64,000 nucleotides of DNA from a virus (lineage: Duplodnaviria; Heunggongvirae; Uroviricota; Caudoviricetes). A program made the translations under genes and the position numbers. The DNA lies in the IMG/VR virus record IMGVR_UViG_3300022746_000001; one strand, given 5' to 3'. Positions 1-56,122 of this stretch are shown in pieces (the first letter of the stretch is position 1; every line of letters begins with the position of its first letter). The notes under the pieces were generated by a model. The model saw nothing but the letters and a program-made list of their open reading frames with translations. It made no database searches and was not told the origin of the DNA.

Positions 1-239
1 TTTTTGTCGGTGATGCGGCCCAGATTAACCACCGGAACTTCGTCGTACCCCAGTGCTTTTGCGGCATCCCAACGGTGTTCACCGCCGATGATTTCAAGGG
101 CGCCGTCCGACTTCTCACGCACGACGATGGGTTTGAACATGCCGAAGCGCTTGACGCTTTCTTCGAGCTTGGATTGGTTCTCTGGCGACACGATGTTGGT
201 GTTCCAGGGGTTTGGACGCAGAGAGGCTGGATTCAGCAT
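1..239 (-). CDS. ParB-like nuclease/NTPase N-terminal domain protein (partial, C-terminus off window)
   Basis: minus-strand translation from ATG at 239: MLNPASLRPNPWNTNIVSPENQSKLEESVKRFGMFKPIVVREKSDGALEIIGGEHRWDAAKALGY; GGEHRW is the ParB/sulfiredoxin motif; absent from ORF track because it runs off the window. Confidence 0.6.
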   Translation of the reverse strand, partial: MLNPASLRPNPWNTNIVSPENQSKLEESVKRFGMFKPIVVREKSDGALEIIGGEHRWDAAKALGYDEVPVVNLGRITDK

Positions 240-299
240 CTCCACTTTGATTTTGCTTGCTTTGTGGTCAGCCACGGGATATTGCCTTATGGGGTGTTA

Positions 300-326
300 A
301 GTCACGACTGACTGAACTATAATCCT
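300..326 (+). promoter_or_regulatory. palindromic motif AGTCAC-GAC-TGACT followed by TATAAT, between divergent ParB-like and helicase genes
   Basis: read directly; member of repeated motif family. Confidence 0.5.
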
Positions 327-365
327 TATACAAAGACTTTGCAAGCCTTACAGAAGAGAAATTGG

Positions 366-1901
366 ATGACACAATCAGTAACCATCGCCTACAACGCAAC
401 CATTGCCAAATTGCATGAACCGACAAGACAAGCAAAACTGGCTGTGCAGCGGCTTGTTTCCTATCGCGTCGAAGGCGCAGAACACACCGGCGCGTTCAAA
501 ACCGGCAACTGGGATGGTCGCTCATCCTTCTTTGACTTCCGAAGCGGCACCTTTCCTGCTGGCTTCGTGAACTTTGTCGCCGCGCACCTCACCCGCGCCG
601 GCTACACCGTTCATCGCGTTCGAAAGCCCCTGCCCTTGCCACAAGGCCCAGAGAACCCAAAGGTCGATGAGTTTCCCGAAGACCCTCGCTACGACTATCA
701 GATGGAGGTAGTCAATCGGCTCTGCAAGCACGGCTCCATGATTGCGCAAGTAGCGACAGGTGGCGGTAAGTCTCGTATCGCGCGCCTGGCGTTCATGCGA
801 ATCAATCGCCCCACTCTGTTTCTGACAACGCGCGGCATTCTGATGTACCAAATGAAGGACACGTTCGAGACAGACCTTGGCGTGGCTTGCTCGGTGCTTG
901 GCGACGGTCAGTTTGGGCATGTCGGCCCCGACGGACGCCAGTACATTAAGAAAATGTCGGTGGGCATGGTGCAGACGCTGGTGTCGCGCCTTCAAGAGCC
1001 AAACCCCGACGATCCTGTGGACGTGCAAAACCGTCAGACCGCCATTCGCAACCAAACCATCGAGCTGCTTGGCAAATTCGAGTTCGTTATCGGCGAAGAG
1101 GCTCACGAAGCGTCGGGCAACAGCTATTACGAGATTCTGCGCCACTGCAAGAACGCTCACTACCGCTTGGCGCTAACTGCCACACCGTTCATGAAGGACG
1201 ACGAAGAGTCCAACATGCGTCTGATGGCTGCGTTCGGCCCTATCGGTATCAAGGTCACGGAGAAGATGTTGATCGACCGTGGCATCTTGGCGCGACCCAT
1301 CTTCAAATACCTGCCTCTGACCGTCAAACCCAACCACCTCATGCGCGGCGCCGGATGGCAAGCGGCGTACCGCCTTGGTATCGTTCAGAACGAGCAGCGT
1401 AACGGCATGATTATTGAAGAAGCCGCCCGCGCCGCGCGTTATGGCTTATCGACAATGATTCTCATCCAGCAAAAGAAGCATGGAGCGATTCTTGAGCAGG
1501 CGCTGAACGCGCGTGGTGTCAAAGCTCGGTTCATTGACGGTGACAGCGACCAAACAGAACGCAAACACGCGCTCAAGCAGCTCGCCAATCGTGAAATTGA
1601 TGTGCTGATAGGTTCGACAATTCTTGACGTTGGTGTAGACGTTCCTGCGGTCGGTATGGTGATCTTGGCCGGCGGCGGCAAAGCAGAGGTTGCCCTGCGT
1701 CAGCGTATCGGTCGCGGTCTGCGCGCCAAGAAGAAAGGCCCGAACATCGCCTTGATTGTGGACTTTGCCGATGACTTCAACATGCACCTGAAGTCTCATG
1801 CGCAGCAGCGCCACCAGATCGTGAAGGACACCGAGGGTTTCGGCGAGAATATCTTGAAGGCTGGCGCAGACTTTGACTACAAGGCTTTGGGGTTGATTTA
1901 A
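366..1901 (+). CDS. superfamily 2 DEAD/DEAH-type helicase
   Basis: VATGGGKS (Walker A), GEEAHEA (motif II), LTATPF (III), QRIGRGLR (VI); start moved to ATG 366 (track ORF begins at a TTG at 339). Confidence 0.8.
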   Translation: MTQSVTIAYNATIAKLHEPTRQAKLAVQRLVSYRVEGAEHTGAFKTGNWDGRSSFFDFRSGTFPAGFVNFVAAHLTRAGYTVHRVRKPLPLPQGPENPKVDEFPEDPRYDYQMEVVNRLCKHGSMIAQVATGGGKSRIARLAFMRINRPTLFLTTRGILMYQMKDTFETDLGVACSVLGDGQFGHVGPDGRQYIKKMSVGMVQTLVSRLQEPNPDDPVDVQNRQTAIRNQTIELLGKFEFVIGEEAHEASGNSYYEILRHCKNAHYRLALTATPFMKDDEESNMRLMAAFGPIGIKVTEKMLIDRGILARPIFKYLPLTVKPNHLMRGAGWQAAYRLGIVQNEQRNGMIIEEAARAARYGLSTMILIQQKKHGAILEQALNARGVKARFIDGDSDQTERKHALKQLANREIDVLIGSTILDVGVDVPAVGMVILAGGGKAEVALRQRIGRGLRAKKKGPNIALIVDFADDFNMHLKSHAQQRHQIVKDTEGFGENILKAGADFDYKALGLI

Positions 1902-2152
1902 TGTTGCAAAAACTGTGGCATGCCTTAGAATGTAAGTCATCAAAGACTTACTCCAAAGGTTCACACATGGGATATGCAATCGCTCTCAACCTTCTCATCA
2001 TCGCCTTCTTGAGTGGAGCGCTCTACCTCACAAGCAATCCGCTGGTGCTGTTCGGTCTGCTGCTCCTGAAAGAACTCCCTTATGGCTTGCTCGTACCGGA
2101 AGATGACGAGGAAGAAGGTAAACCTATGGGTTTCGTACACCCAGAAAAGTAA
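1901..2152 (+). CDS. small membrane protein (possible true start 1967)
   Basis: TAATG overlap with helicase stop; hydrophobic core AIALNLLIIAFLSGALYLTSNPLVLFGLLLL; acidic C-terminus. Confidence 0.4.
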   Translation: MLQKLWHALECKSSKTYSKGSHMGYAIALNLLIIAFLSGALYLTSNPLVLFGLLLLKELPYGLLVPEDDEEEGKPMGFVHPEK

Positions 2153-2261
2153 TACCTTTGAGTTGCAATCAAAACAAGTGCAACAAAAATCGTGCCAATT
2201 CTCAGAAAATAAGCGCGACGACCGTATAATCAAGCTCAGGATCATTTCTGAATACCTCCAT

Positions 2262-2288
2262 GCCCCGACACTCGGGGCTTTTTTTTGA
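2262..2288 (+). terminator. rho-independent terminator
   Basis: GCCCCGA-CACT-CGGGGC followed by T8. Confidence 0.7.
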
Positions 2289-2367
2289 ACTTTTTTGTTT
2301 GTATAAGGTTTGCGACAGTACAATACAACCATTCGCAATCATTTTGAAATTTTCACTGGAGAAAACC

Positions 2368-2646
2368 ATGCAAGAAGCTGAAGAAAAAGGCAAGCGCTAC
2401 GCTATCGTCGTCGAACAATCGGTACAGAACAAGCTGGCCGAGCTTGCCAAGCAGCACAAAATCTCTCAAGGCGCTGTTGTCGAAGAGTTGATGGGCTTGG
2501 TCAACACCGACGCACTGGCAAAAGCACTCGTTGCGCGCCGCGAACACAAGGTCTCAAACCGCAGCGGCAAGAGCGCAATCTTGAAGAAGCTCTCCAAGCT
2601 CAGTCCTGAGCAATTGGAAGCGCTGGCAGCTCAAATGAAGGTCTGA
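2368..2646 (+). CDS. ribbon-helix-helix-like DNA-binding protein (putative regulator)
   Basis: GGAGAAAACC RBS before ATG 2368; N-terminal beta strand KRYAIVVEQSV then helices, RHH-like. Confidence 0.5.
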   Translation: MQEAEEKGKRYAIVVEQSVQNKLAELAKQHKISQGAVVEELMGLVNTDALAKALVARREHKVSNRSGKSAILKKLSKLSPEQLEALAAQMKV

Positions 2647-2647
2647 C

Positions 2648-2812
2648 GTGACCTTAGAGACGTATGCGGGTGGGCCAGACGATCTGCCTACCTGCCCCAT
2701 CGACGGATGGCGGACTCAGACCATCGAGACCGACAAAGATGACGTGAACATCACGATCGAACTCTGTCCTCACTGTGGCAAGAAGTTTCGCTACATAGCG
2801 GAGGAAGAATGA
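2648..2812 (+). CDS. small zinc-ribbon protein (54 aa)
   Basis: GTG start 2 nt after upstream stop, ATGA overlap with next gene; CP...CPHCGKKF; below track size cutoff. Confidence 0.35.
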   Translation: MTLETYAGGPDDLPTCPIDGWRTQTIETDKDDVNITIELCPHCGKKFRYIAEEE

Positions 2813-3108
2813 ACACCCAAGACCAACCTAGCGCCCCCTCTTTTGAGTTTACGGGCGTTGCCAAGCGCAAGCTCGACGGCTTGCTGTCTGAAGGCTATGA
2901 GCTGAACGGCTACTGCTTTCAACAAACCTTAGAAGACGGAACCGTCAAGCGCGGAGCAATCACCGAGGGCGGAATGGTTCTTTGGTGGCACTCTGACCAC
3001 CCGCCTGTCAAGATTCCGTCTCGCATGACAGAAGACCCCTGCCCTGGCTGTCGCCCAGGCGTTGTCTGTCGCACCCCTCGCTGCGGACGACTCAAAACCC
3101 GCACCTAA
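2809..3108 (+). CDS. hypothetical Cys-rich protein
   Basis: ORF track; CPGCRPGVVCRTPRCG motif. Confidence 0.45.
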   Translation: MNTQDQPSAPSFEFTGVAKRKLDGLLSEGYELNGYCFQQTLEDGTVKRGAITEGGMVLWWHSDHPPVKIPSRMTEDPCPGCRPGVVCRTPRCGRLKTRT

Positions 3109-3126
3109 CACCCTCATAGCAGTGCC

Positions 3127-3369
3127 ATGACTGAAGCAGAAGACTGGGGCGAACTGTCCGAAGACGACATTCTGGAGCTTGTCGCGCCTACGCCCATACT
3201 GGTCGAACCCACAATTAACTACATCTGGGTGGCGCTCTACATAACGGAAGGTTGCAGCCTGCCCATGACCATGACTGGCTGCGACCGCAAACAAGTCATA
3301 AGTTGGGTGCGCGGCAGCTCCGCACTCGACCGAACCAAGCCAATTAAGCTGTACCGATTGGAATACTGA
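3127..3369 (+). CDS. hypothetical protein
   Basis: ORF track; same-strand operon context. Confidence 0.4.
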   Translation: MTEAEDWGELSEDDILELVAPTPILVEPTINYIWVALYITEGCSLPMTMTGCDRKQVISWVRGSSALDRTKPIKLYRLEY

Positions 3370-3578
3370 TGCCTGAACAACCACGCTATTGCTGCCACAA
3401 GTGTTTTCACAAAACAGGTGGCTTTCTTGACCGTATGCTGCTGTGCCCCGAGTGTGGCAACAAGCGCTGCCCCAAAGCGACCGATCACGATCTAGCCTGC
3501 ACGGACTCAAACGAGCCAGACCAGCCAGGCTCAATCTATGGTGGACGCCCCGTCGAGGGAGCAACCTCAGATGACTAA
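3369..3578 (+). CDS. hypothetical zinc-finger protein
   Basis: TGATG overlap with upstream; CCHKC...CPECGNKRC. Confidence 0.45.
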   Translation: MPEQPRYCCHKCFHKTGGFLDRMLLCPECGNKRCPKATDHDLACTDSNEPDQPGSIYGGRPVEGATSDD

Positions 3579-4053
3579 GAAGATCATCCTCAACGCCGCA
3601 GGCAAGGTCGAGCTAACCGTATGGCACAGCGGTTCAAACGTGTTCATCCAGCAGCCAGGCGCGGGACAGTCCTCGATGGACGTGCTGCTGCTGCCAGAAC
3701 TCATCAAGCAGCTTCAGAAAATCCAAAAAGAGACCATGCCGCTCCCACCCAGGAAGAACGACTGGAAAGAACTCGAAAAGACCTTCATGGACACCCAAGC
3801 GAGACTTCTGCAATGGGGACTGCAAGAGATACGGCTGCGAAGACAAGACCTGTCAAACCGAACAGAAGGCGGTCTGAAGATCGCGAAGCTGGCTGCAAAA
3901 TCACGACGCGAAGCCGCCGGCCTGACCGAAGCGGAAGCTGTGCTGTGGATGAAAGCTGCCCGTAAAGAGCTGGCAGACAGTCTCGTCAAAGAAGATGAGG
4001 CCCAAGCCACGATCAGCAGAGACGTTCCAGCCACAGACGAGGTGACATGGTGA
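3571..4053 (+). CDS. hypothetical protein
   Basis: GAGGGAG RBS before ATG 3571; ends ...DEVTW. Confidence 0.5.
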   Translation: MTKKIILNAAGKVELTVWHSGSNVFIQQPGAGQSSMDVLLLPELIKQLQKIQKETMPLPPRKNDWKELEKTFMDTQARLLQWGLQEIRLRRQDLSNRTEGGLKIAKLAAKSRREAAGLTEAEAVLWMKAARKELADSLVKEDEAQATISRDVPATDEVTW

Positions 4054-4211
4054 GCGACGCATGGAAACTCGGCAACCAAGCCGCATGGAGCTGGTGGGGA
4101 ACGCCACAACCACAAAACCCATTCACGGAAGGAACGCAAGAAGCAATCGACTGGGAAAAGGGTTTCGATATTGGCTGTGAAGACTATACGAACTGGTGGG
4201 AAAGCGAATGA
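4047..4211 (+). CDS. small Trp-rich protein (54 aa)
   Basis: ATGGTGA overlap with upstream stop; MVSDAWKLGNQAAWSWWG...NWWESE; below track cutoff. Confidence 0.35.
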   Translation: MVSDAWKLGNQAAWSWWGTPQPQNPFTEGTQEAIDWEKGFDIGCEDYTNWWESE

Positions 4212-4579
4212 GGGTTCTTGTCTGTGGCGGTCGCGATTACAGAGATTCTGCTTTCGTTAGTTTCGTTCTGGGCGTAATTCACGCAAAAAAATCAATCAAG
4301 CTGGTCATCCACGGTTGCGCACAAGGGGCAGACACCTTCGCAGAGCAATGGGCGTCTCAAATGAGCGATACGACAGCTTACGGTGTACCCGCAGACTGGA
4401 AGAAGCACGGTACGAGAGCTGGTCCCATCAGAAACAGGCTCATGCTGGAATTGGGCAAGCCAGATTTGGTCATTGCGTTCGAAGGCGGAGCTGGCACAAG
4501 GGACATGACGACTGCGGCGACAGCCGCTGGAGTGAAAGTCCTGTTTGCCGAGAAATTGCGACCACATTTCGAATCTTGA
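4208..4579 (+). CDS. DUF2493/SLOG-family Rossmann-fold protein (DprA/LOG-like)
   Basis: VLVCGGRDYRD...VIHGCAQGADTFAEQWA...GPIRNRLMLE...DLVIAFEGGAGTRDM matches SLOG/DUF2493 pattern. Confidence 0.6.
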   Translation: MRVLVCGGRDYRDSAFVSFVLGVIHAKKSIKLVIHGCAQGADTFAEQWASQMSDTTAYGVPADWKKHGTRAGPIRNRLMLELGKPDLVIAFEGGAGTRDMTTAATAAGVKVLFAEKLRPHFES

Positions 4580-4996
4580 GCCACTCAGCTCGAAATTTTT
4601 TGCTTGTATAAGGATAGACAATGTCCCCATCGGGTCATTTTTCTGTCGATCATGGGGATTTTGGTCAAAAATGTCCTCATCGGGGCATTTTCCATTGGGT
4701 CTTACGGATTCGGAGCCGGCTGTATAAGGACGTGAACTTAGGGTCTGCCTGGCTGTATAAGGGGCGCTAGGGGAGGTGGAAAACGAGGAAGGGGTCGCCT
4801 CCAAACCGAAGCACTTTTTCTAGGACTTCGGTATTATTTCTCCAATGTTTACTTTACGGTAAGCGCGTCATGCACTAACCACAAACAATAAACAAAACCT
4901 ATTGCAACCGCTGCACAATCAATTAAATCAATCATTGTTTAAACCTTGTTTGTTTGGTAAGTGGTGCAAGCTGTAACGCTTGCACCGTGTCACTCA

Positions 4997-5665
4997 TTAA
5001 GCATAGAACGCGATAACCGCGCGCGCTGCGTCATTCTCTCGCATTGTGATTGCATCATTGTTTTTTTGCTTGATAACGTTCGCAAGGTTCAACGCTTTGA
5101 GCATCATACGTGTGCTGCTTGCTTGAGTGCTTGCAGTTGATTCGCTGCAATTGTGCAAGCGTTTGAGCGTTTGCACTTGCTCTGTCTCGCTGTATTCGAT
5201 TGATTTACAAATGCTCATGCGTGATTCTTTGTTATTGATTGTTTGCAGCTTAACCAGATTAAACAAAATCGAGTTAGTGTAACCATCAAAACCAGAACGC
5301 GCATTGTTTGCAATTGCGTAAAGCGCTTTGCGTACTTTTTGCAGTGCATACACTGCGAGAAAATCATTTTTTGATTCTGTCTTCAATACTGCTATTTGAC
5401 GCGCAAGCGCTTGCAAATCAATTTTGAGCGCTTCGCACTTGCTCAGAATTACCGCTGCGTTTGCATCGTCAAAAAAACGATATTCTGCTGTGAGCGTGTC
5501 ACGCTGGTTATCATTGTCTGCGTTTTCAATTCTGCGTTTGATAGCTGCTAAAATTGCGGTTTGTGCTGCTGCTGCTGTGTCTGCTGCTGCTGTAGTTGCA
5601 ACCTTGCTTTGCTTTGCTTTTTTAGCTGCTGTAGTTGCTGCTGTGTTTGCGTTTGCTTTGCTCAT
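4997..5665 (-). CDS. hypothetical protein with Ala/Lys/Thr-rich histone-H1-like N-terminus
   Basis: AAAGGTGAAAAC RBS before ATG 5665; low-GC codon usage unlike neighbours. Confidence 0.5.
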   Translation of the reverse strand: MSKANANTAATTAAKKAKQSKVATTAAADTAAAAQTAILAAIKRRIENADNDNQRDTLTAEYRFFDDANAAVILSKCEALKIDLQALARQIAVLKTESKNDFLAVYALQKVRKALYAIANNARSGFDGYTNSILFNLVKLQTINNKESRMSICKSIEYSETEQVQTLKRLHNCSESTASTQASSTRMMLKALNLANVIKQKNNDAITMRENDAARAVIAFYA

Positions 5666-5859
5666 GTTTTCACCTTTAAAAGTTTGGTTTTTGAAACTCA
5701 ATCAAAATCAATTGAGTGAACGTAGTATAAACCAAAAAACAATCAAAAACCACGCAAGCACAAAAAAAAGTTGATTGTTTTTTTAAATCGCCATCATAGC
5801 TAAAAACAATCACACAAAATGCTTGTTTTGTGGTATACGTGAAAAACAATCAAGTCTCC

Positions 5860-6200
5860 TATAAGACAGGAGACAACTCTCCTAGGAGACAGGACATGGG
5901 TCTCCTATAAGACATAAGACAGGAGACAGGATGCGGACGATTCTCATTTAGGCGCCGATGCGGATGATCCGCATTTGCGATGCCGACTCCAGCTCCGACC
6001 CACGCACTGCCCTCTAACCTCCTAGGCAGCCCCAACCAGAGTCCATGCCGTACTCCATGCTCCTAGGCAAGTCCAACCAAAGCCCCTGCCGTACCCAATG
6101 GCGATGAGTACCAGTGTCCTACCCGTACCCAACCAGTGTTCGACCCGTTCCTAGGCGTCATCACGCTGCATAAAAGGGTGTGAAATCCATTCACACCCCC
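5860..6200. repeat. repeat-dense non-coding block: TCTCCT...AGGAGA palindromes, ATGCGGA-TG-ATCCGCAT palindrome, 33-bp imperfect direct repeats starting CCTAGGCA, CTGCCGTACCCAATGG copies
   Basis: read directly. Confidence 0.7.
6165..6198 (-). terminator. rho-independent terminator
   Basis: GGGTGTGAA-ATCCA-TTCACACCC then TTTTAT on minus strand. Confidence 0.5.
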
Positions 6201-6211
6201 TGCTCTATCCG

Positions 6212-6388
6212 TTAACGCTCGTCGTACAGGCGAGGTGTTCGGCGTACCGAGTGACCCTGACGCAGCATCTCTAGCTCCACGTCTTCTTGCATTTGGTCGT
6301 AGAAGTCTTCCTGGTCGTCGAATCGCTCGACAAATTGGAAGGTGTTGTTCTCTGTTGGCACAGGGTTAGTTTGAGCAATGCGTGACAT
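6212..6388 (-). CDS. small acidic protein (58 aa)
   Basis: AGGAG RBS 7 nt before ATG; MSRIAQTNPVPTENNTFQFVERFDDQEDFYDQMQEDVELEMLRQGHSVRRTPRLYDER; followed by hairpin terminator; below track cutoff. Confidence 0.45.
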   Translation of the reverse strand: MSRIAQTNPVPTENNTFQFVERFDDQEDFYDQMQEDVELEMLRQGHSVRRTPRLYDER

Positions 6389-6406
6389 GAGGTACTCCTG
6401 AAGCGG

Positions 6407-6661
6407 TTATTGCTTTGCGCTTGGTGTGGGGTACTGCATGCCGAACTCATCGGTTCGCTCGTCGTCTAGATCGCTATGCCCAAGAACATGCAAGCAATTG
6501 AGAATGGACGACATAGTGAATCCACCAGCGACATACAGACCGAACAACCACAGAGCGCCACCTCCATGTTGTTCAATTGCTTTGATGCAGGCGTATGCGA
6601 TTGCGGAACAGACCGTGATGGTCATTAAGGTGAGAACATAAACAGTTTGGCGATTGTTCAT
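6407..6661 (-). CDS. small membrane protein (2 TM)
   Basis: ORF track; hydrophobic segments. Confidence 0.5.
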   Translation of the reverse strand: MNNRQTVYVLTLMTITVCSAIAYACIKAIEQHGGGALWLFGLYVAGGFTMSSILNCLHVLGHSDLDDERTDEFGMQYPTPSAKQ

Positions 6662-6868
6662 GATTGTCTTTCATTTGTTGCACTCAAAATCGAGTAAATG
6701 AATTACATCATATAAAACAATCAAAAACCGCATGCCTAGATGATTGCCTGAAAGATCGCCTGCACTGGCCTAGGCGTCTTTTGGCCTACAGGTCAATGCT
6801 TACGGCCTAGGGGAATGTGTGGCCTGTGGCCTGAGAACCGAGCCTATCACTCGCTCGGTTTCTGTGGC

Positions 6869-7087
6869 CTACTCGTCGTCGAGATTCACGTAGTCAGGGG
6901 CATCCTGACGCTCAACCACGCGAATCGTCACACCTTCACAGACCGTTTCCAAGACGCTCTTGGTCGTTCTAACCAGCGCATCGAACGCTTCCTGCTCTAT
7001 GCGCTCGTCACGATTGTTCAAGGTCGCAAGCACTTGGAAGTCACCATCATCGCGGTCAAAGCCTATTGAAACGACTTCATGTGTCAT
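6869..7087 (-). CDS. hypothetical protein
   Basis: GGAG RBS, ATGA overlap with upstream gene. Confidence 0.5.
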   Translation of the reverse strand: MTHEVVSIGFDRDDGDFQVLATLNNRDERIEQEAFDALVRTTKSVLETVCEGVTIRVVERQDAPDYVNLDDE

Positions 7088-7335
7088 TGCGCACTCCAGT
7101 TCTTTTGATGCTCTTCCAACTTGATGGTCAGCGCGTAGATTGCTTCAAGCATTAGGGGAACAATATCAGCGCTTGCTTTCTTCGCTTTTTCCAAGCACTC
7201 AATTGCGTAATTAGGTGTGAAGAAGTAGATGGAGGATTCGTCAGCGTGATGCGAATCTTCGCCAAAACAATTGATAACCACACACAGGAGGTCTGCTTCG
7301 TCGTCGGTAAGGTTGCACTTGTCCAAGATGTTCAT
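7084..7335 (-). CDS. hypothetical protein
   Basis: ORF track; preceded by ACTCgattttGAGT palindrome element. Confidence 0.5.
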   Translation of the reverse strand: MNILDKCNLTDDEADLLCVVINCFGEDSHHADESSIYFFTPNYAIECLEKAKKASADIVPLMLEAIYALTIKLEEHQKNWSAQ

Positions 7336-7389
7336 GATGGTTTTGCGTTGTCACTCAAAATCGAGTGATTGAACTATAAGCGCAAAAAT

Positions 7390-8640
7390 CACTGCCTAAT
7401 CATGCTCGGTTCAATTCCCCTATAAGGTGTCCAATTCATGCTTTTCTCCTAGGGAGTTTCTTTTTAGGGGCAAACCTTATAGGGCAATGCCTAGGCAAAC
7501 TTATAGGAGTAGGCAAGCGAGCCTAGGCGAGCTTATACATTGGCAGAGCTTCCTAGAGTCTCCAATTGGCATTACCAGTGCCGCAGCCGTACCCAGTGGA
7601 TGAAAAGCCATCAAGGACATACCAGTCAGACAGCCGTACCCAATGGGTCAGTCCCTAGGGGTTTTGGATGCTTCGGACGCCGCGACTGGTCACGCTTTCT
7701 AGGCTTGGTCTCCTGTCTGCGAGTAGGCATGACGCCGATCCTGGGCTTTTGCCTAGGGACTTTGATGATGATCGTTTCTTTGGACATGCTCGAATTGTAG
7801 GGCGAAATTTCTTGTATAAGATTCGCCGCCGACTGCGTTAAATGATGAAGGGAATACTTCCCCCCAAACCTTATACATCTTTCCTAATTTTTCTTTTCCT
7901 ACTCTCTATCTACATACCTATACCTGAAGTTCTTCTTCCTAGCTTTTTATCATTCATTCTTCTATTCATCCTATGATTCATCCGTATGGTAGTTGTGGTC
8001 GTAGTCCTAGTCTTTATGCGGGTTCTTCGTTTCCGTGTCCGTCGTTTTGCTATTCATCTATCTATTCATCCTCTTAGCTGTTCCGATGTAGTTTGTGGTT
8101 GATTTTGTGCCTGTTCTTTTCTTAGCTGTTGTCGGTTCGGTTTGCTTTGGATTGTTTGTTCTTAGTTGTTTTGGGTGCCGAGTGTGTAAAGTTTGGGAAA
8201 GTTCTTCTTTACGTTTCTTGGGTTCTTTTTGGGGATGTGGGCAATTTCGGTCTGGCGTATATTTATATTTATTGCTTTTAAGGCTTATAGATTAAATGTC
8301 GCGGGATGGAAGAAAGCCTGACTCTGGCCTACGGGAGTTTGCTTACACTTTTCGGCCTCTGATTGTTCTCGGCCTCGTGTTTGATGCTTACGTGTTTTGG
8401 ACGGTCTCTTTAAACGACTTTTGAGCGCTTTTCCTGTGCTTGCTTAGTCGGTGGTATCAATGCTTGTTTGGCAGCGTTTTTGAGGTCGTTTTGAGTGCTT
8501 GGCCTATGGTCGTTTTTGCTTGCGTTTGTTTACATCAAAAAAGCTCAATTCCTGACAACTCAGGTGTCAGTTAGTGGTTGATGGGTCTTCCTCAAAAGTG
8601 GCGTTTTCCTGTTTAAAATCAATGACTTACGCCAAGGGGA
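7390..8640. repeat. non-coding region with CTTATA(G/C) iterons (7400-7860), CCTAGG-rich repeats, then T/G-rich direct repeats (7860-8640)
   Basis: read directly; no convincing ORFs. Confidence 0.65.
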
Positions 8641-8646
8641 CGAATT

Positions 8647-8682
8647 GTATACAAATAACCCCTAACTCGTAGGGGTTATTGA
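8647..8682. terminator. bidirectional hairpin terminator
   Basis: AACCCCTA-ACTCG-TAGGGGTT then TTTTT on plus; ATTTGTAT on minus. Confidence 0.5.
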
Positions 8683-8701
8683 GTGTTTTTGTACTCGATT
8701 T

Positions 8702-9154
8702 TTAGGCGATTTTTAGGTCGTTTTGAGACGCTGCCAAAGTCGGTGTTTTTTGGCTTTTTTGGAGCTTTTCTAGCTGCTGTTCACAGTAGATTCGGACACC
8801 GTCACGAGCAGCCTGCGGGCTGTGATTTTGAAGTGTGTTGTCGTGGATTTCTTGGATCATCTTCAGCTCCGAGACTTTCATGCCTGTCACGGTTTCGACG
8901 TTACGCTTGCCTAAGAAGTCTTTGGCGACATAGTCGATAGCTGATTCGTTGTAGCCTGCTTCGTCGATTGATTTCAGTTGGGTTTTGCTGAACAGCGAGC
9001 CTACCGCGCAGTTGTTGCCTGAAGCGTATAGGTACTCGCAACCTCCATCTTCCCCTTCTCTCTTAGGGCCAATCTTCTTCAAATTTGCCTGTTGAATGAT
9101 GTGTCGCAGGCTTTCTTCGCGTGTTCGGCATTCGACTCCGTTGATGATTTGCAT
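8702..9154 (-). CDS. hypothetical protein
   Basis: AAGGAG RBS before ATG 9154 (internal M of track ORF). Confidence 0.5.
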   Translation of the reverse strand: MQIINGVECRTREESLRHIIQQANLKKIGPKREGEDGGCEYLYASGNNCAVGSLFSKTQLKSIDEAGYNESAIDYVAKDFLGKRNVETVTGMKVSELKMIQEIHDNTLQNHSPQAARDGVRIYCEQQLEKLQKSQKTPTLAASQNDLKIA

Positions 9155-9177
9155 GATGGGTACTCCTTTGGTGTTAC

Positions 9178-9510
9178 TTAGTTGCCGATTGATTCGTAGT
9201 GCTGGATGAGGTGGTTGAGCCAAGCGTGTCTTGTCGCCTGAATCTTCTTCGGGTCGCGGAAGTTGCCATTTATCATGTAAAGGTCTTCCATACGACAGTG
9301 CTTATTGGCGACTAGCCAATCTTCGAGCGTAGTGTGGCCGTTGAGCAGTTCGGAGATGACATGCTTGGCTGCATAGATTCTGTCGTCATGGAGCGGGTGC
9401 CGAGCGAACAGTCGATTGATGGCGTGACAAACAAACTTTGGCTGATATGGTTGTCCGAAACCATTCCAAAGTTCGTATTTGGCTTCGCGGAAGATTTGAC
9501 TGAGTTTCAT
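9178..9510 (-). CDS. hypothetical protein (paralog of 17391-17729)
   Basis: MKLSQIFR...HAWLNHL...IGN resembles MKLSTIFR...HAWLESL...IGD. Confidence 0.55.
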   Translation of the reverse strand: MKLSQIFREAKYELWNGFGQPYQPKFVCHAINRLFARHPLHDDRIYAAKHVISELLNGHTTLEDWLVANKHCRMEDLYMINGNFRDPKKIQATRHAWLNHLIQHYESIGN

Positions 9511-16480: not shown

Positions 16481-16744
16481 ATTTGCTCTCCGTTTGCTGT
16501 CAAAATCGACAATTGAAGTATTTCAAGCCAGTCTAGGACTAGCAAGTCACTTGTGACTTATCCCTACTATATCGCCTGTTTCCTTGTTTGAACGGGGACG
16601 AAGCGATTAGAGCGTGCCTCCGGTGCGGTTGATACCGAGGTAGCACCTTGTCATGGAAACACAAGGCCAACGTGTTTAAAGTGGTCGCAAACCAGCGCCT
16701 GCTGGCTCGTGTATGTGCGTTTGTATAGCGTCAGGAACCACAGA

Positions 16745-18594: not shown

Positions 18595-19057
18595 AAGTGA
18601 CTCCTTCAAAAGTTGAATTAAGTGGAACGGCATCGCATTTGCGATAAACAGAATGTAATCAGCGAACATTGGGGTCACAAGCGTTTTGCTTGGGGACTTT
18701 TTACATTGCCTTCGTGATTGCTTTCCGTCTAATCGTTTACTGCAATGATTGAATTTTGAAGTGCCGATATAGGACAAACAAGCGAAAACGCAGGCTATCC
18801 ATTAGGGAACATGAGCCAGTTGGAACTGACTAAAACGCACACGCACACGCGCGCGAAATACACACGAGATATTGGAGAGTCAATGCGTTTCCCAGGCGAT
18901 ATGGCTGGAAATATTTTTCGCCCGAGGAGTCAATGGCGCACAGGAAAACCGCCTACATTGGCGGTTTCCTACGGTGATGCTCGGGTCAATGGAGAAATAG
19001 ACCCCAAATAACCATACCAGCCTGTCTGCCGTACCAAATGGGCGGCAAACTTGCCAA

Positions 19058-19504
19058 CTACCAAGCTCCGAAGTCGTCGGTCAAGCCTTCAATCTTCACG
19101 TCAGCAGGTTTGTTTGGATCAGGTGGTGGCGGTGGTGTGTAAATGTTGTCCACCTCAAAGAACTTGCCATCATCATCGCGATCACAGTCTGTCCAAGTGA
19201 GTAAGAAATCCTCATAGCAGTCGATGGCGTTTTGTTCGTGCGCGAACGTCTGTCCGCTCATGTTGGGGTCTACGCGCAATTGACCGTCGCTGCCATAGTT
19301 CCACACGTTGATGGAGAACAGCGGCCAAGTGTCGCGAAAGGATGATTTCTCAATGCTCGACAACTTGCCTAACCAAACGAGCCGAGCCTTTACGACGCCA
19401 TTGTCGAAGTTGCGAATCAGGCGGTAGTCCTCGTCTTCGCTTTTCAACTTCCACTCAGCGAGTGACATTGGACGACCTGTGCGGTCATAGTAAAAAGATG
19501 CCAT
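19058..19504 (-). CDS. hypothetical protein
   Basis: AGGAAGG RBS; ends DDFGAW. Confidence 0.55.
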   Translation of the reverse strand: MASFYYDRTGRPMSLAEWKLKSEDEDYRLIRNFDNGVVKARLVWLGKLSSIEKSSFRDTWPLFSINVWNYGSDGQLRVDPNMSGQTFAHEQNAIDCYEDFLLTWTDCDRDDDGKFFEVDNIYTPPPPPDPNKPADVKIEGLTDDFGAW

Positions 19505-20912: not shown

Positions 20913-21281
20913 TCAAACGCGAGTGTTGGGGTCTTCTTCGCTTTTCTCTACAGGGAAAGGTTCGCCTGCAAAGATAGCTTTCATGTATGCCTGAATCTCT
21001 TCTTCGGTAGGCTCTTCCGCTTGCACATCAATCAAGCGAACACCGCAGGCTTTGCCAGTGATGCCAGCAAAGAAAGAGACCGCGAAGAACAGGACGACCT
21101 TCACGATAGCGTCCCAAAGCGGTCTCACAAACGTGTAAAACAGGATGAAAGGCAGATGAAAGATTGGCGAGAATACGCCGACCACGAGCGACTGCAAGTA
21201 GTTGGGGTTACGCTGAACGCGCAGATTGGCTGGTTCTGGCAACCAAGTGGGGGCGAATGTGTACTTGAATCGTTTAATCAT
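20913..21281 (-). CDS. membrane protein
   Basis: AAGGAG RBS; hydrophobic helices. Confidence 0.5.
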   Translation of the reverse strand: MIKRFKYTFAPTWLPEPANLRVQRNPNYLQSLVVGVFSPIFHLPFILFYTFVRPLWDAIVKVVLFFAVSFFAGITGKACGVRLIDVQAEEPTEEEIQAYMKAIFAGEPFPVEKSEEDPNTRV

Positions 21282-21284
21282 GGG

Positions 21285-21851
21285 TTACTCCTTTGTAGTG
21301 TGGTGATCGACAGTCGTGTGTCCACGACCATCCATGTAAGCTCTAACATCGTCCAATGAGTACGGTGTCAGGTTGTTCGTGTCGCAGCCCACGTCCATGA
21401 GCCGCATACCTTCGTAGGGATGTTTTAACGTGCCATGCGAGTGACCGTGAAGCATCCAAGAGCCGTAGTGCGCTTTGTTCCAAGTCAGCATCGGGTAGTG
21501 GCACATCACGATGCGGTCGTAACCTCCATCGCTGCGCTGCACCTTCAACTCCTTCAGGTCTTGAATAGAAGCGAAGTGTTGCGTCACCAGTGCCGACTGC
21601 CTGGCTTTGTCGTGGTTGCCCTTGATCCAGTGTTTGACGCCATTCAGACGCTTGAGGATGTTGTGGGTGTACTCGGCGTTCTTGAAAGACAGATCGCCCA
21701 AGTGAAAGATGGTGTCTTTCTTGCCTACTACCTCATTCCAACGCTCGACAATGGCTTCGTCAACTTCAGCGGCAGTCTCAAAGCCACGATTGACGTGCTT
21801 GATGATGCCTTCATGACCGAAGTGAGTGTCGGACGTAAAAAAGTAATTCAT
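21285..21851 (-). CDS. calcineurin-like metallophosphoesterase
   Basis: SDTHFGH, GDL, GNHD, GHSHG motifs; GGGGGAG RBS. Confidence 0.7.
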   Translation of the reverse strand: MNYFFTSDTHFGHEGIIKHVNRGFETAAEVDEAIVERWNEVVGKKDTIFHLGDLSFKNAEYTHNILKRLNGVKHWIKGNHDKARQSALVTQHFASIQDLKELKVQRSDGGYDRIVMCHYPMLTWNKAHYGSWMLHGHSHGTLKHPYEGMRLMDVGCDTNNLTPYSLDDVRAYMDGRGHTTVDHHTTKE

Positions 21852-33175: not shown

Positions 33176-33263
33176 TGGCGGAAGCGGTGAGATTCGAACT
33201 CACGGAACCTTGCGGTTCGACTGGGTTCAAGCCAGTTGCCATAGACCACTCGACCACACTTCC
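33176..33263 (-). tRNA. tRNA-Ser (anticodon UGA), CCA encoded
   Basis: long variable arm; anticodon loop CTTGAAC; T-arm GGTTCGAATCTC. Confidence 0.8.
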
Positions 33264-33270
33264 TAAATCT

Positions 33271-33355
33271 TGGTGCCCAGAGTCGGACTCGAACCGACAC
33301 GCCTCGCGGCGACGGCTTCTGAGGCCGTTGCGTCTACCAATTTCACCACCTGGGC
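33271..33355 (-). tRNA. tRNA-Leu (anticodon CAG), CCA encoded
   Basis: anticodon loop CTCAGAA; long variable arm; T-loop GTTCGAGTC. Confidence 0.8.
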
Positions 33356-33356
33356 T

Positions 33357-33432
<76 letters not shown>

Positions 33433-33535
33433 ATCATGAATGAAGGCTTTCGTCCAGCTCGGGATAGGTCGGTAGTTAGCCGTTTCAGTTTCACCCGTCC
33501 CCTGGGAATCGAACCCAGAAGCCTTCATTCATGAT
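33433..33535 (-). other. about 100-nt element with 15-bp terminal inverted repeats containing a tRNA T-arm-like hairpin (tRNA-like fragment / structured RNA / miniature insertion)
   Basis: ATCATGAATGAAGGC ... GCCTTCATTCATGAT flank CTGGGTTCGATTCCCAG (minus strand) and tandem TGAAAC repeats; no complete cloverleaf found. Confidence 0.35.
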
Positions 33536-33610
33536 GGTGCCGCCTTGAGGAATTGAACCCCAGACCTTCTGCTTACAAGGCAGCTGCTCTACCAACTGAG
33601 CTAAGGCGGC
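33535..33610 (-). tRNA. tRNA-Thr (anticodon UGU), CCA encoded
   Basis: GCCGCCTTAGCTCAGTTGGTAGAGC; anticodon loop CTTGTAA; 7-bp acceptor stem. Confidence 0.75.
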
Positions 33611-33614
33611 TTAA

Positions 33615-33691
33615 TGGTCGGAGATGCAGGATTCGAACCTGCGACCCTCTGCTCCCAAAGCAGATGCGCTACCAGACTGCGCTAATCTCCG
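33615..33691 (-). tRNA. tRNA-Pro (anticodon UGG), CCA encoded
   Basis: CGGAGATTAGCGCAGTCTGGTAGCGC; anticodon loop TTTGGGA. Confidence 0.8.
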
Positions 33692-33695
33692 ATAC

Positions 33696-33770
33696 TGGTA
33701 CTCGGTGCGGGAATCGAACCCGCCTTACCGCCGTGAAAGGGCGGTGTCCTAACCGATAGACGAACCGAGC
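33696..33770 (-). tRNA. tRNA-Glu (anticodon UUC), CCA encoded
   Basis: anticodon stem-loop CCGCC-CTTTCAC-GGCGG; T-arm GCGGGTTCGATTCCCGC. Confidence 0.75.
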
Positions 33771-33861
33771 GTTCCATCAAGTCTGTTCTCTCGTGGGTCA
33801 AGCTACTCCTTTGCCGTCAAGAGGCTTGTTTCACCATTCCTCTTAGAGAGGACAGACTTCA

Positions 33862-33937
33862 TGGCTCCCCAGGGTGGGTTCGAACCACCGACACATGGAT
33901 TAACAGTCCATTGCTCTACCAACTGAGCTACTAGGGA
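33862..33937 (-). tRNA. tRNA-Asn (anticodon GUU), CCA encoded
   Basis: TCCCTAGTAGCTCAGTTGGTAGAGC; anticodon loop CTGTTAA. Confidence 0.8.
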
Positions 33938-34034
33938 ATGACGGTGCGTATGGAGTTGTACCCCAGACGTTTGTCGGCTTTTATAGTCCCCACACCTTTA
34001 GGACTACCGTGTCTCTGTTCTTCTTGCAAGAAAC

Positions 34035-34111
34035 TGGTTGCGGGGGCAGGACTCGAACCTGCGACCTCTGGATTATGAGTCCAGCGCTCTAACCTACTGA
34101 GCTACCCCGCT
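34035..34111 (-). tRNA. tRNA-Met (anticodon CAU; elongator or Ile2-type), CCA encoded
   Basis: anticodon loop CTCATAA; A1xA72 unpaired; no GGG/CCC initiator anticodon stem. Confidence 0.7.
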
Positions 34112-46805: not shown

Positions 46806-49800
46806 TTAAGACAAAATCTCGGCGACTTTTCGGAATGCTTCATCCAAAATCAGTTGCTTGTCTGGGTCAAAGCCAATCTGCTGTGCGTTGAGGCCACAAA
46901 CAATGGTCGCGTCCAGCTTGGGGTCGTAGAACGCCTTACCAGCCACTTCTGCTGCCCCACCCTTCAGTCCTGGAACGAACTTCTTGATGGTTGACGAGCC
47001 AAGCGCCACGATGATCGGTGGCTTAATCAGCTCAATCTCACGGTCGATGTAAGCGGAACAGCCATTGATCTGCTCGTTGGTCAGGAACTTGTCTTGCTTC
47101 TTAGCTTTGACCAGTGTGGTGTAATAGCCTTCAGCTACGTTCAATCCTGCATTCTTGATTGCCAGCTTGACGTACTGAGCGGCGTCACCTTCCAGCAGCT
47201 TGTCTTTCTTCTCTTCTTGCCATGTTGGGCAGTCCGAGACAACCATGAAGCGGACGTTCGTCTTGCAGCGTACTGTTGGGTGAGGTTCGCCAGCTAAAGT
47301 GCAGCCTTCGCATTTCTTGTAATCCTGAACCACCTCGATGATCTTGGTGCGCAAAAAGCCAGCACTGAGGTCAGCCGATCGGTCAGCCTTCACCGTGTCG
47401 ATAATCAGTCCTGGCAGCAGTTCCATCTGCGCTTTGCGGCGACTGAAATGCAGGGGCGACAGCTCAGTCTTGTCGATGCTGGCGTAAGCGCCAATCAGCT
47501 TCAAGTTCTCCACCACCCGAGCGTTGACCTTTGAGCCAGGCTGCGAGGCGGCAAGCTCGAACTCTTGAGGCGTATCGAAACGACCCTTGACTGGGGCTGC
47601 CTCATCCATCTCCCACACGTCCTCGACCGTCCCATCGCGCTTCTTCTTGGTCTTGACGACGCCCCAGCTCCGGTTGCGTTCACGCAGCTCCACAATGCGT
47701 AGCGCGGTATTCTCGGAGACGCCCTTCACGGCAGAGAACGGTGCCAAGATCGTGCTGTTGTTGGGGATGGTATACCGATGTGTGGACAGGTTAATGTCTG
47801 GCGGCATGACTTCAATCTTGTACTCACGCGCGTCCGTCACCAGCCCAGGCAGCTTGTCTTCGGCCACGATCGACATACAGGCAGCGAAGTATTCAGCGGG
47901 GTAGCGGCAGCGAACCCACATCGTCCAGTAGCTGATGATGGAGTATTCAACGGCGTGCGAACGGTTGAAACCGTAGCCAGCGAACGCTTCGATCTTGTCA
48001 AAAATGCCACCAGCGGTGCGCTCGTCCATACCGACGTTCTTCAGACAACCGGCATTCCACTGCTCACGCATTTCAGCCATCTTGTCTTTGTCTTTCTTGC
48101 CCATCGCTTTACGCAAGTGGTCAGCTTCAGCTCGTGTGAAGCCTGCAAGATCAACGGCAACCTGCATGACCTGTTCCTGATAGACGATAACGCCATAGGT
48201 CTGACGCAGCGCTGGCTCCATACTTGGATGGTCGTAGTATGGGGAGCGAATACCTTGCTTAATGGCAACGTAGTCATCCATCAGACCGGAGTCCATTGGG
48301 CCTGGACGGTACAGCGCGGTTGCGGCAGTAATGTCTTCGAAGGTCAATGTGCCACCGACAGCCAAGTCGCGCAGCAGCTTCTTCATGCCTGGCGATTCGA
48401 ACTGAAACACGCCGGTAGTGTCGCCACGACCGAATGATTCCATAATGTCAGCTTCTTCAAGAGGCAGATCGAGGTAGTCAATCTCAACGCCATGACGGTC
48501 ATGGATGTATTGACGCGCAATCTCCAGTACGTCGAGCGTGGACAGACCCAAAATATCCATCTTGACCAAGCCCCAGTCTTCAACCACACGCTTGTCCCAA
48601 GACACTGTGGGCGTCGTATCGTCACCGCGCGTCTCCACAACGGCACGATTGACTAACGGCTCACCAGCGACCACTACGCCGGCAGCGTGTCGTCCAAAGG
48701 CTCGCATAGCACCCTCTAAGTGCAGCGCATGCTTCCAAATCCCTGGGCGCTCGTCTTTGAACTTGTCGATTTCAGGAACAGCTTTCGCTGCTTCTGACAG
48801 CGTGAACGATTGACCATGCTCTTTTGGAACGAGCTTAGTAGCGGTTAGCTCAATGCCATTGAGACCATATACGCGACCAGTGTCACGCAGCGCGGAGGCG
48901 CTCGCTAACGTCGAATAGTTTGAGATTCCTGCGACACGATCTGTACCGTATTTGGCTGACAGGTATTCGATAACCATGTGACGCTTGGAAGACATGAAGT
49001 CCAAGTCAGCGTCTGGCAAGTCAAGACGTTCAGGGTTAATGAAACGCTCGAACAGGAGGTTAAATCGAATCGGGTCAACGTCAGTGATGCCAATTAGGTA
49101 AGCGACCAATGAGCCGCCAACCGAACCGCGACCTGGCCCCACGATGATGCCGTTGTTCTTAGCCCAGACCACCAAGTCTTCCACGAGTAAGAAGTAGCCA
49201 GCGAAGCCCATCTTTTTCAGCACACCCAACTCGTATTGCAGGCGCTCTTGGTAGACCTTTATCTCCGTGCTGTCTGGCTTGTGACCGAGAACTTCGCGAC
49301 CAAAGCGGCGCTTCCATCCTTCGAGACACTTCTTACCGAGCGCCATGAACTCGTTGTCTGCCATCTTGGGCAGAGAGACGGGCAACTTTGAGAAGGTGTA
49401 GGCACATTCATTGACCAGTTCTTCGGCATTCTTTAAGCCCTCAACCCACAGGTTTGGAGCCGACACACCATCGAACGTGGCAATGCGCTTTGATGCGCCC
49501 TTGACGCGATCAACGATGTGCTTGGGTTCGTGAATGGAGAAGTCCTGCACGTATTGAATGGGACGGTACGACACATCCATCTTGCTGCTTGATGTGATAG
49601 CCGCCAGTACCTCAAGACTTTCGGCACAGTTATCGTCACGGTAGAAGATGGGGTATGTGACAAGTGGCAGACCGATGCCAGGCTGGTCATCGAGCAACAG
49701 CATGGCTTTTGCGTTCAGGGTATCGAACAGCGGCGTATTGATTGGCGTTAGCTCGATGTAGGTCTTGAACTTGTCAGCCAGCTTGCGAACGATCTCTGCG

Positions 49801-55389: not shown

Positions 55390-55569
55390 TACCTCTCCTT
55401 TTTGATGAGAACGCCCGTAATTATAGTCACTGACCGCTTAGTTATTGCTAACTGCAAAAAATAGAAATGTGTGATAAATTGCCAGTAAAACAAACTCACT
55501 ACTTATTTAACCCGCGTTTATAATTTAGAAGTCAGCTCGACGTTTGAGCTAAATTTTTGGGAGAAAGCT

Positions 55570-56016: not shown

Positions 56017-56050
56017 GCAAAGTTTCGTCACTACTGAATAAGGCACCTTC

Positions 56051-56076
56051 GGGTGCCTTTTTTTTCAACTAAGGAT
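56051..56076 (+). terminator. rho-independent terminator
   Basis: AGGCACC-TTCG-GGTGCCT followed by T8. Confidence 0.7.
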
Positions 56077-56122
56077 TTAGTGACTATCATATAAATTCAC
56101 TCGTGACTTATCAACAAGCCAA

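Follow-up and report, generated by a model that had tools for sequence, protein, structure and literature searches.

What does a phage keep in three kilobases that hold hardly any genes? The question is raised by IMG/VR virus record IMGVR_UViG_3300022746_000001 (Caudoviricetes), of which one stretch of 64,000 nucleotides (the window; W in comparisons) was analyzed. An earlier note had picked out positions 5700 to 8700 as repeat dense and largely noncoding, and had proposed a replication origin or packaging site, or else a regulatory hub. Only four short genes indeed lie there (6212-6388, 6407-6661, 6869-7087 and 7084-7335, all on the minus strand), and the JGI gene calls on an identical contig leave 1.37 kb uncalled. 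The regulatory half of the proposal is the one that we retain: the repeats lie between terminators and three near-identical promoter-like/hairpin leaders, and in relatives they are conserved beside the gene for a winged-helix protein, here called gD. With a probability of roughly one-half, we read the region as operator-like binding-site arrays and reusable promoter/hairpin cassettes within a hyperplastic accessory-gene region, with gD as the prime candidate for the binding protein.

The same sequence occurs, identical, within a 105,728-bp JGI metagenome contig, and the phage belongs to an uncultured group with genomes of ~105 to 112 kb. By DnaE, its closest GenBank phages are Rhizobium RHEph10-like, Stenotrophomonas, Xanthomonas and Pseudomonas nickie-like phages, at 44% identity; the closest cultured relatives have genomes of ~106 to 122 kb. 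The DNA of the 3-kb region had no match in GenBank phages, near or distant. For comparison, 12 distinct related phage loci with gD were used, and relatives are labelled L001 to L018. The minus strand carries nearly all genes between 4997 and 64000, so the region is read on that strand throughout. In this direction it begins with a terminator and a T-depleted tract of ~0.8 kb, continues through three cassettes and ends at gD. Every cassette opens with a terminator or hairpin and a motif array; a -10-like hexamer and a 5' hairpin whose loop is GATTTT come next, ahead of one or more small genes. The arrays, the leaders and gD are laid out as follows.

7411-7760, unstranded: motif array 1, with five CCTAGG, sites of the CCTATAAG(G) type, two 47-bp units with GGTACGGC-N-CTGGTA, and the element AAAGAAACTCCCTAGGAGAAAAGCATG
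7351-7384, minus strand: leader of gene 7084-7335, with -10-like TATAGT (7373-7378), hairpin TCACTC-gatttt-GAGTGA (7351-7368) and CAAC
6736-6870, unstranded: motif array 2, with six co-oriented AGGCC (YAGGCCR), two CCTAGG, one CGTAAGCAT unit and a hairpin (6836-6860) without a U-run
6681-6712, minus strand: leader of gene 6407-6661, with -10-like TGTAAT and hairpin TACTC-gatttt-GAGTG
6012-6160, unstranded: motif array 3a, ~41-bp units CCTAGG(AG)-N-GTACGGC-N-CTGGTTGG, with homologous units in L001, L002, L003 and L015
5930-5976, unstranded: palindrome ATGCGGATGATCCGCAT, two copies, the second degenerate; conserved as GGATGAGGATCATCCTCATCC in L001 and L002
5851-5921, unstranded: three phased 23-bp units with GTCTCCT / AGGAGAC half-sites and a spacer of 0 (GTCTCCTAGGAGA) or 7; Tandem Repeats Finder (TRF) period 23, 3.1 copies
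5661-5853, unstranded: AT-rich segment with TTGATTGTTTT boxes in both orientations (TTGATTG boxes)
5696-5733, minus strand: leader of gD, with -10-like TATACT (5724-5729) and hairpin ACTCAATT-gatttt-GATTGAGT
4997-5665, minus strand: gD, 222 aa from the ATG at 5665
16497-16512, minus strand: fourth leader hairpin, TTGTC-gatttt-GACAG, outside the region and ahead of the gene starting at 16479

The hexamer CCTAGG is confined to this region. All 11 of its sites in the 64-kb window fall within 1.9 kb (5881-7757), and the other 62 kb hold none; the overrepresentation seen earlier is real, although the count given then, at least 13, was too high. Across the 12 phage loci, 124 sites lie in the 81 kb beside gD versus 4 in 135 kb elsewhere, densities of 1.52 and 0.03 per kb. 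This clustering is found at 10 of the 12 loci and persists where gD is as little as 45% identical; in L018, one to three sites occur in each of the gaps between genes upstream of gD. The flanks of the hexamer are mirror symmetric (Y-B-CCTAGG-V-R; n = 74 sites). Neighboring sites are 9 to 11 bp apart in 13 of 79 cases, and apart from these 10-bp doublets the spacing is irregular. Variants include an extended form, GTCTCCTAGGAGAC, and the doublet CCTAGGcatcCCTAGG.

Would so short a palindrome be expected in this genome at all? Outside the region (1-5700 and 8701-64000), the window shows extreme avoidance of 6-bp palindromes. Twenty-five palindromic hexamers (AAGCTT, CCATGG, CTGCAG, TGATCA, CTCGAG and others) have zero copies versus 5 to 28 expected each, whereas among nonpalindromic hexamers with an expectation of at least 10, only 3 of 2604 have none. 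GGCC, CTAG and CCGG stand at 0.40 to 0.59 of expectation, and eleven palindromes, such as AGCGCT, TCATGA and TTGCAA, are not avoided. The palindrome set is likewise depleted in L001, L002, L015 and L018 and hardly so in L003 and L017. Since the genome has been purged of 6-bp palindromes, those that are retained, such as CCTAGG, are probably under selection. One palindrome kept while 25 were eliminated would be a clean example of selection for sites against the pressure of restriction avoidance.

Further motifs accompany CCTAGG. The arrays are 150 to 350 bp long, cover 2 to 5 kb in total and lie after terminators or hairpins and before leaders. The element AAAGAAACTCCCTAGGAGAAAAGCATG of array 1 is common to L002, L003 and L005, and array 2 has a homologue at L001 8730-8925. 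Array 3 as a whole comprises the 41-bp CCTAGG/GTACGGC units, two ATGCGGATCATCCGCAT palindromes and the three 23-bp GTCTCCT/AGGAGAC units. The asymmetric motifs are co-oriented with transcription, with sense-to-antisense ratios of 35:2 for GTACGG, 71:16 for AGGCC and 32:7 for CCTATAAG, counts to which shared descent contributes. The other intergenic gaps that a crude gene call found in the window hold no array motifs; one isolated GTACGGC-N5-CTGGTATG unit lies between genes in a stretch overlooked by that call.

That isolated GGTACGGCAG-N5-CTGGTATG unit (cccatttGGTACGGCAGacaggCTGGTATG) lies at 19015-19045 on the minus strand and is nearly identical to units at 7615-7650. It follows the stop codon of gene 19058-19504 and precedes a terminator hairpin, and would therefore be in a 3' untranslated region. 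Two promoter readings of the motifs were rejected. A T7-like promoter reading of CTTATAGGAGAC meets no single-subunit RNA polymerase in the window, and the motif orientation flips between phages; for a sigma-54 or other alternative-sigma reading of GTACGGC-N-CTGGT the spacing is wrong, as judged by eye.

The repeats that had been described earlier are partly these units. The palindromes TCTCCTAGGAGA at 5878, ATGCGGATGATCCGCAT at 5958 and GGGTGTGAA/TTCACACCC at 6176/6190 are present as named, as are two direct copies of AAAACAATCAAAAACC (5736 and 6714). The 16-mer CTGCCGTACCCAATGG is exact only once (6086) instead of three times; near copies with one or two mismatches occur at 7584, 7631 and, as had been said of the distant one, 19026, making 4 matches versus 0.28 expected. 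What had been taken for 33-bp repeats is a 23-bp array of three units (5851-5921) together with paired repeats of 41 bp (6012-6093), 47 bp (7573-7646) and 32 bp (7489/7521).

Each cassette reuses one leader. A scan for hairpins with a stem of at least 5 bp and a GAT[TA]TT loop finds 4 in the window, all on the sense strand, versus 0.4 in shuffles. All four sit 4 to 6 nt past a TAnnnT hexamer and 14 to 30 nt ahead of a start codon, and terminators or hairpins precede three of the leader copies. The fourth leader is preceded, in the stretch upstream to 16800, by two terminator hairpins and has no CCTAGG or motif array. Ten hairpins from four phages differ in their stems; both sides change at 7 of 7 stem pairs, and pairing holds in 93% of cells, where the inner five pairs were themselves the selection criterion. 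This pattern speaks for selection on a stem-loop at the 5' end of the mRNAs rather than for a sequence-specific operator.

The protein encoded beside the arrays has a long N-terminal helix and a MarR/ArsR-like winged helix, its fold matches being MarR/ArsR-type regulators. It belongs to phrog_4202, with 119 unnamed homologues. In 28 diverse homologues the invariant residues are T177, S179, T180, Q181, S183, S184, T185 and R186, all within the predicted recognition helix; such invariance fits a conserved DNA target. Searches of Pfam, NCBIfam (no Rep_3/RepA) and PDB sequences gave no match for gD, its top fold matches include no solved Rep or initiator structure, and its "replisome organizer" matches in BFVD have an E value of about 2. 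By tblastn, neither gD nor gene 8702-9223 had a match among GenBank phages. In two relatives gD is duplicated (L003 9947-10585 and 11910-12479; L005 6987-7589 and 10021-10614), and there each copy has its own motif arrays ahead of it and the same recognition-helix sequence.

How might these parts work together? We propose that the region controls a hypervariable block of accessory or early genes in a large DnaE-encoding phage. Three autonomous mini-operons (up to five or more in relatives) would reuse one leader module: a -10-like hexamer, 4 to 6 nt, a 5' stem-loop with a GATTTT loop, CAAC and a ribosome-binding site. The arrays between the terminator of one cassette and the next leader would be binding sites of one or more phage-encoded DNA-binding proteins. 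Y-B-CCTAGG-V-R doublets one helical turn apart, or GTCTCCTAGGAGAC, would suit a cooperative dimer that builds a nucleoprotein complex upstream of each promoter. We regard gD as the prime candidate because this winged-helix protein is encoded where the block ends, because its recognition helix does not vary, and because its gene accompanies the arrays from phage to phage; it may bind the CCTAGG or the GTCTCC/GGAGAC sites. It would then control its own expression and turn all the cassettes on or off in concert. A second factor could recognize the asymmetric, co-oriented motifs (GTACGGC-N-CTGGT, YAGGCCR and CYCCTATAAGGTT), or these could be direction-dependent roadblocks. The T-depleted tract upstream probably keeps transcription of the ~55-kb upstream operon from reading through into the block.

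Several points weigh against this proposal. Both the operator arrays and the promoters are read from sequence. A sigma-70 scan of the three leaders found no canonical -35/-10 pair, so we infer promoters from the conserved TAnnnT hexamers. L006 and L016 have gD yet just one or two CCTAGG sites. Common descent accounts in part for the orientation bias and the 10-bp doublets, which are thus not independent observations; this inflates the counts. A palindrome of 6 to 10 bp is short for a MarR-type dimer, and ribbon-helix-helix proteins are more typical readers of such arrays; no ribbon-helix-helix protein was identified. The array hairpin without a U-run and the GTACGGC unit in a 3' untranslated region leave room for roles at the RNA level. 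Finally, the T-depleted tract is confined to a subclade, and its role is a guess.

Short operators read cooperatively by small dimeric repressors are familiar from the met-boxes of MetJ and from the heptad arrays upstream of three promoters that are read by omega of pSM19035. As in those systems, several contiguous or helically spaced 6- to 10-bp units stand here upstream of more than one putative promoter; the candidate binder here, however, is a winged-helix protein, and the spacing is irregular save for the 10-bp doublets. Morons of temperate phages, autonomous promoter-gene-terminator units, resemble the cassettes, every one of which comes with a promoter-like leader and a terminator of its own. 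The cassettes differ in being syntenic across relatives, with one leader family and shared motif arrays, and are not independent insertions.

Two other phage systems come close. The stoperators of cluster A mycobacteriophages, bound by L5 gp71-type repressors, are single 13-mers spread across the whole genome (PMC9283540). They share with our arrays the many short, phage-specific intergenic sites, asymmetric ones being co-oriented with transcription; here, the sites are clustered within 2 to 5 kb beside gD instead of dispersed, and the main motif is palindromic. The promoter-early stem-loop (PeSL) cassettes of T4-like phages (Arbiol et al. 2010, PMC2839356; Comeau et al. 2014, PMC4122927) are likewise small composite terminator/promoter/stem-loop modules that are repeated in one genome and flank small open reading frames (ORFs) of unknown function in hyperplastic regions. 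There, too, relatives keep the modules but exchange the genes that lie between (here, across 12 loci). The present lineage is unrelated, however, having a DnaE/CobT/RNR-II gene set and not being a T4-like myovirus. Its stem-loop follows the -10-like hexamer and has a constant GATTTT loop, with no sigma-70 early promoter consensus, and PeSLs have not been reported with 150- to 350-bp arrays of the CCTAGG type or with a 0.8-kb T-depleted tract.

Perhaps the palindromes nearest to gD are instead the iterons of a replication origin? The gD protein would then be the initiator, acting in the manner of lambda O on the 23-bp GTCTCCT/AGGAGAC palindromes, and the AT-rich TTGATTGTTTT segment would be the unwinding element; transcription through the purine/A-rich tract might also provide R-loop priming. 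In the lambda-type origin, palindromic iterons bound by the winged-helix O protein are followed by an AT-rich segment, and phased palindromes, an AT-rich segment and an adjacent winged-helix gene are all found here. GTCTCC/GGAGAC occurs 5 times in the 450 nt upstream of gD versus 0.25 expected, and this 20-fold enrichment upstream of gD extends to L001 (7 copies), L002 (6), L003 (3) and L015 (4). The three phased units adjoin the most AT-rich 150 bp of the window (5661-5810, GC 0.29, the lowest of all 150-nt windows). An analogous array of three 39-bp GTTCAGC units occupies the same genomic position in Stenotrophomonas phage ANB28.

Against an origin, gD is a single winged helix without a sequence match, or a significant fold match, to initiators, and it matches no known Rep, O or replisome-organizer family. 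Unlike in lambda, the array lies upstream of the gene and not inside it, there is no partner helicase-loader gene, and gD is duplicated in some relatives (L003 and L005). The AT-rich segment, which is also the promoter-like region of gD, is not kept ahead of the second gD copy in L003, and L005, L014, L011 and L018 lack GTCTCC arrays. No DnaA box lies in the region (TTWTNCACA has a single match in the 64-kb window, at 11183, and the consensus of the host may be a different one). CCTAGG arrays fill every intergenic gap of the hypervariable region instead of one compact locus and are far from the primase and DnaE genes. The cumulative GC skew, proposed earlier as a check, makes no global turn at the region beyond the local tract, and the skew of a partial genome is uninformative. 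We consider an origin unlikely.

The ANB28 array itself (L012, which has no gD; 21210-21440, syntenic position) has two GTTCAGC in each 39-bp unit, plus inverted copies, and lies 230 to 420 bp upstream of a gene for a 199-aa protein with a similar low-complexity basic N terminus. Homology between gD and this protein was sought by hhalign, and none was found. The linear GenBank record of ANB28 stops ~3.4 kb beyond the array.

Across the relatives, the order small genes, large gap, cassettes, gD, convergent helicase block, two ParB_N genes, ABC-like ATPase and thioredoxin is kept. The genes between the conserved noncoding blocks vary, including HxlR, DUF4145, MazE/PemK and pentapeptide proteins and a second gD copy, while the noncoding blocks are 76 to 85% identical versus 40 to 75% for the flanking proteins. 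By these sequence comparisons, the region is a hyperplastic accessory region whose genes are less stable than its noncoding modules. Modules better conserved than the accessory genes they would control, in a setting where the genes of relatives include toxin-antitoxin pairs and anti-defense genes adjoin the block, may serve as handles for the exchange and coregulation of accessory genes. For an uncultured phage group, CCTAGG arrays, a leader hairpin and a candidate winged-helix regulator without a named homologue amount to a conserved and testable putative cis-regulatory grammar.

In the relatives, HxlR, DUF4145, a MazE/PemK toxin-antitoxin pair and pentapeptide-repeat genes are found upstream of gD, and Tad2-like and Acb2/Tad1-like anti-defense genes are found downstream (L016 4456-7275 and 17766-18026; L017 6125-7577, 11114-11872 and 16050-16556; L018 11660-11884).

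The ParB_N genes bear on another explanation, in which the arrays would be centromere-like or genome-organizing sites, similar to parS or KorB operators, and the two ParB_N-domain proteins, whose genes lie ~9 kb away, would bind them. Short palindromes arrayed ahead of several promoters do recall KorB O_B sites and sopC, and every relative keeps the two ParB_N genes in the same neighborhood. No ParA-type ATPase is present, however, the neighboring ATPase being ABC-like, and the ParB_N proteins match the N-terminal domain alone, with no recognized helix-turn-helix. The integrase of the window and a relative located in a 450-kb Paraburkholderia contig argue for integration and against plasmid maintenance. 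We judge this explanation very unlikely.

The ParB_N block is placed between the helicase block and the structural genes. In L007 (15391-17929, just left of window position 1) and in L013 to L018, it encodes a pair of ParB_N-only paralogs and an ABC-like ATPase, all of ~220 aa, along with a SprT-like protein and thioredoxin, and in some relatives homing endonucleases (HNH, GIY-YIG) are inserted into it.

Of the partial contigs, L004 breaks off within the T-depleted tract and L018 does so ~4 kb upstream of gD; four further loci end within 5.7 to 8.3 kb upstream of gD. These ends are probably assembly breaks in variable, repeat-rich DNA.

Could the region be a packaging recognition site (pac/cos) or a physical genome end, as had also been suggested? 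Its repeated hexamers recall the pac site of P1, and L004 and L018 are among the partial contigs that end in or near it. Yet breaks of this kind are expected in hypervariable, repeat-rich DNA, and four long contigs (104 to 108 kb) hold the region at different internal positions. The arrays span 2 to 5 kb, no terminase lies near the region within the window, and in L018 more than 15 genes separate gD from TerL, whose start is ~10.3 kb downstream. A packaging function is extremely improbable.

The remaining components of the region are the tract, the small genes and their terminators.

8654-8680, unstranded: bidirectional terminator hairpin AATAACCCCTAACTCGTAGGGGTTATT, with an 11-bp stem, a T-run on the plus strand and TTTGT on the minus strand
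7860-8640, minus strand: T-depleted, A/C-rich (sense) untranslated tract; in 300-nt windows, T is 0.13 to 0.15 and A 0.41 to 0.47
8408-8560, minus strand: most conserved block of the tract, CTCAAAACG repeats and AAGCACAGGAAAA; blastn 76 to 78% to L001 and L002
7626-7787, minus strand: possible ORF for a very basic 53-aa protein (MSKETIIIKVPRQKPRIGV...; MSKETIIIKVPRQKPRIGVMPTRR...), overlapping two CCTAGG and one GTACGGC unit
6869-7335, minus strand: small acidic genes 7084-7335 (83 aa) and 6869-7087 (72 aa), neither with a family match
6212-6661, minus strand: genes 6407-6661 (84 aa, hydrophobic) and 6212-6388 (58 aa, acidic)
6176-6198, minus strand: intrinsic terminator of gene 6212-6388, GGGTGTGAA-n5-TTCACACCC, then TTTTAT on the minus strand

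The terminator at 8654-8680, reported earlier as bidirectional, does have T-runs on both sides; it closes a long minus-strand block whose last gene is 8702-9223. Beyond it, the plus strand at 7860-8640 is T/G rich, as described (AT skew -0.41 and GC skew +0.17 in 8001-9000), although the long tandem-like repeats said to fill it are short families only. The tract is found also in L001 to L004 and L015, with T at 0.05 to 0.09. Its conservation is limited to two blocks at 76 to 78%, with little outside them. Its sense RNA has a fold z of +2.2 and is less structured than 20 of 20 shuffles; the antisense has a z of -0.4. Our best guess is that the tract is a read-through insulator with Rho-loading character: its RNA would be untranslated and unstructured, with C exceeding G in the 5' half, which suits Rho.

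Might the region act as RNA rather than as DNA? The tract would then be a long unstructured noncoding RNA or leader, for instance a sponge for binders of single-stranded RNA of the Hfq, CsrA or S1 type or an RNase-E-resistant leader, and the co-oriented motifs would act in RNA. A strong strand asymmetry kept in 5 or 6 phages, a sense RNA less structured than every shuffle, the alignment of GTACGG and AGGCC with transcription, and one GTACGGC unit between a stop codon and a terminator are in keeping with this. In a search of Rfam, which had been suggested earlier as a check, no noncoding RNA was matched: at the gathering score and E ≤ 1, nothing was found except the tRNA cluster. The tract lacks a clear conserved promoter and begins right past a strong terminator, sequence conservation is slight outside the two blocks, and GGA and stop-codon counts are near compositional expectation. 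The symmetry and helical spacing of CCTAGG are, moreover, behavior of the DNA type. This explanation seems to us improbable.

In a further reading, the arrays and the tract would form an undescribed kind of phage cis-element, a nucleoprotein "control center" in which the family-specific gD, perhaps with the ParB_N proteins, coats the CCTAGG-type arrays, and in which a U-poor, unstructured transcript of ~1 kb or its R-loop couples transcription to the initiation of replication or to silencing of the anti-defense/accessory island. We hold this to be rather unlikely.

Three readings of the tract were rejected. Against protein coding, the window lacks a period-3 signal, translated matches are scattered over several frames and both strands, and the long frames of relatives have no start codon. 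As a CsrA sponge it has GGA at just ~1.5-fold over composition (hand count), with stop-codon counts as expected. Intrinsic DNA curvature was dismissed on an A-tract periodicity that is inconsistent across loci (p from 0.015 to 0.9; top periods 11.5 to 12).

In relatives, the tract has a strong 3-base periodicity that is absent from the window (L003 8600-8990 and L002 6090-6760; z of 14 and 6.5) and open frames of 125 to 134 codons without a start codon. Hexamer repeats could account for this periodicity, as could a coding region that has decayed or is unconventional.

As to the small genes, the 83-aa protein is conserved in L001 and L002 and the 72-aa protein is not. The terminator hairpin at 6176-6198 occurs in L001 and L002 as well. 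The 53-aa ORF lies at the downstream edge of the T-depleted tract and has its only counterpart in L005, an ORF at 6540-6683 with 43% identity and synonymous changes; it is absent from L001 and L002 and was not called by JGI.

The rest of the window encodes a DnaE-type polymerase, CobT and CbbQ-like ATPases, a class II ribonucleotide reductase, SbcC, ligases and a DnaG-like primase, along with a P4-type integrase and eight tRNAs. An attP reading of the region was set aside: the integrase is 50 kb away, and the Paraburkholderia prophage-like locus is syntenic downstream of gD only, which is uninformative. The 450-kb Paraburkholderia contig that holds this relative is from a genome bin, which hints at Betaproteobacteria as hosts. 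The DnaE-type polymerase (1151 aa; 46806-50261, minus strand) has a uracil-DNA-glycosylase-superfamily domain at its C terminus (residues 999 to 1100), and the eight tRNA genes are clustered at 33179-34111 (minus strand). The P4-type tyrosine integrase, which has an Arm-DNA-binding domain (56244-57596, minus strand), lies in the middle of the replication gene block with low-GC, AT-rich gaps on either side (55390-55548 and 56047-56243); it could belong to the phage itself or to an inserted element.

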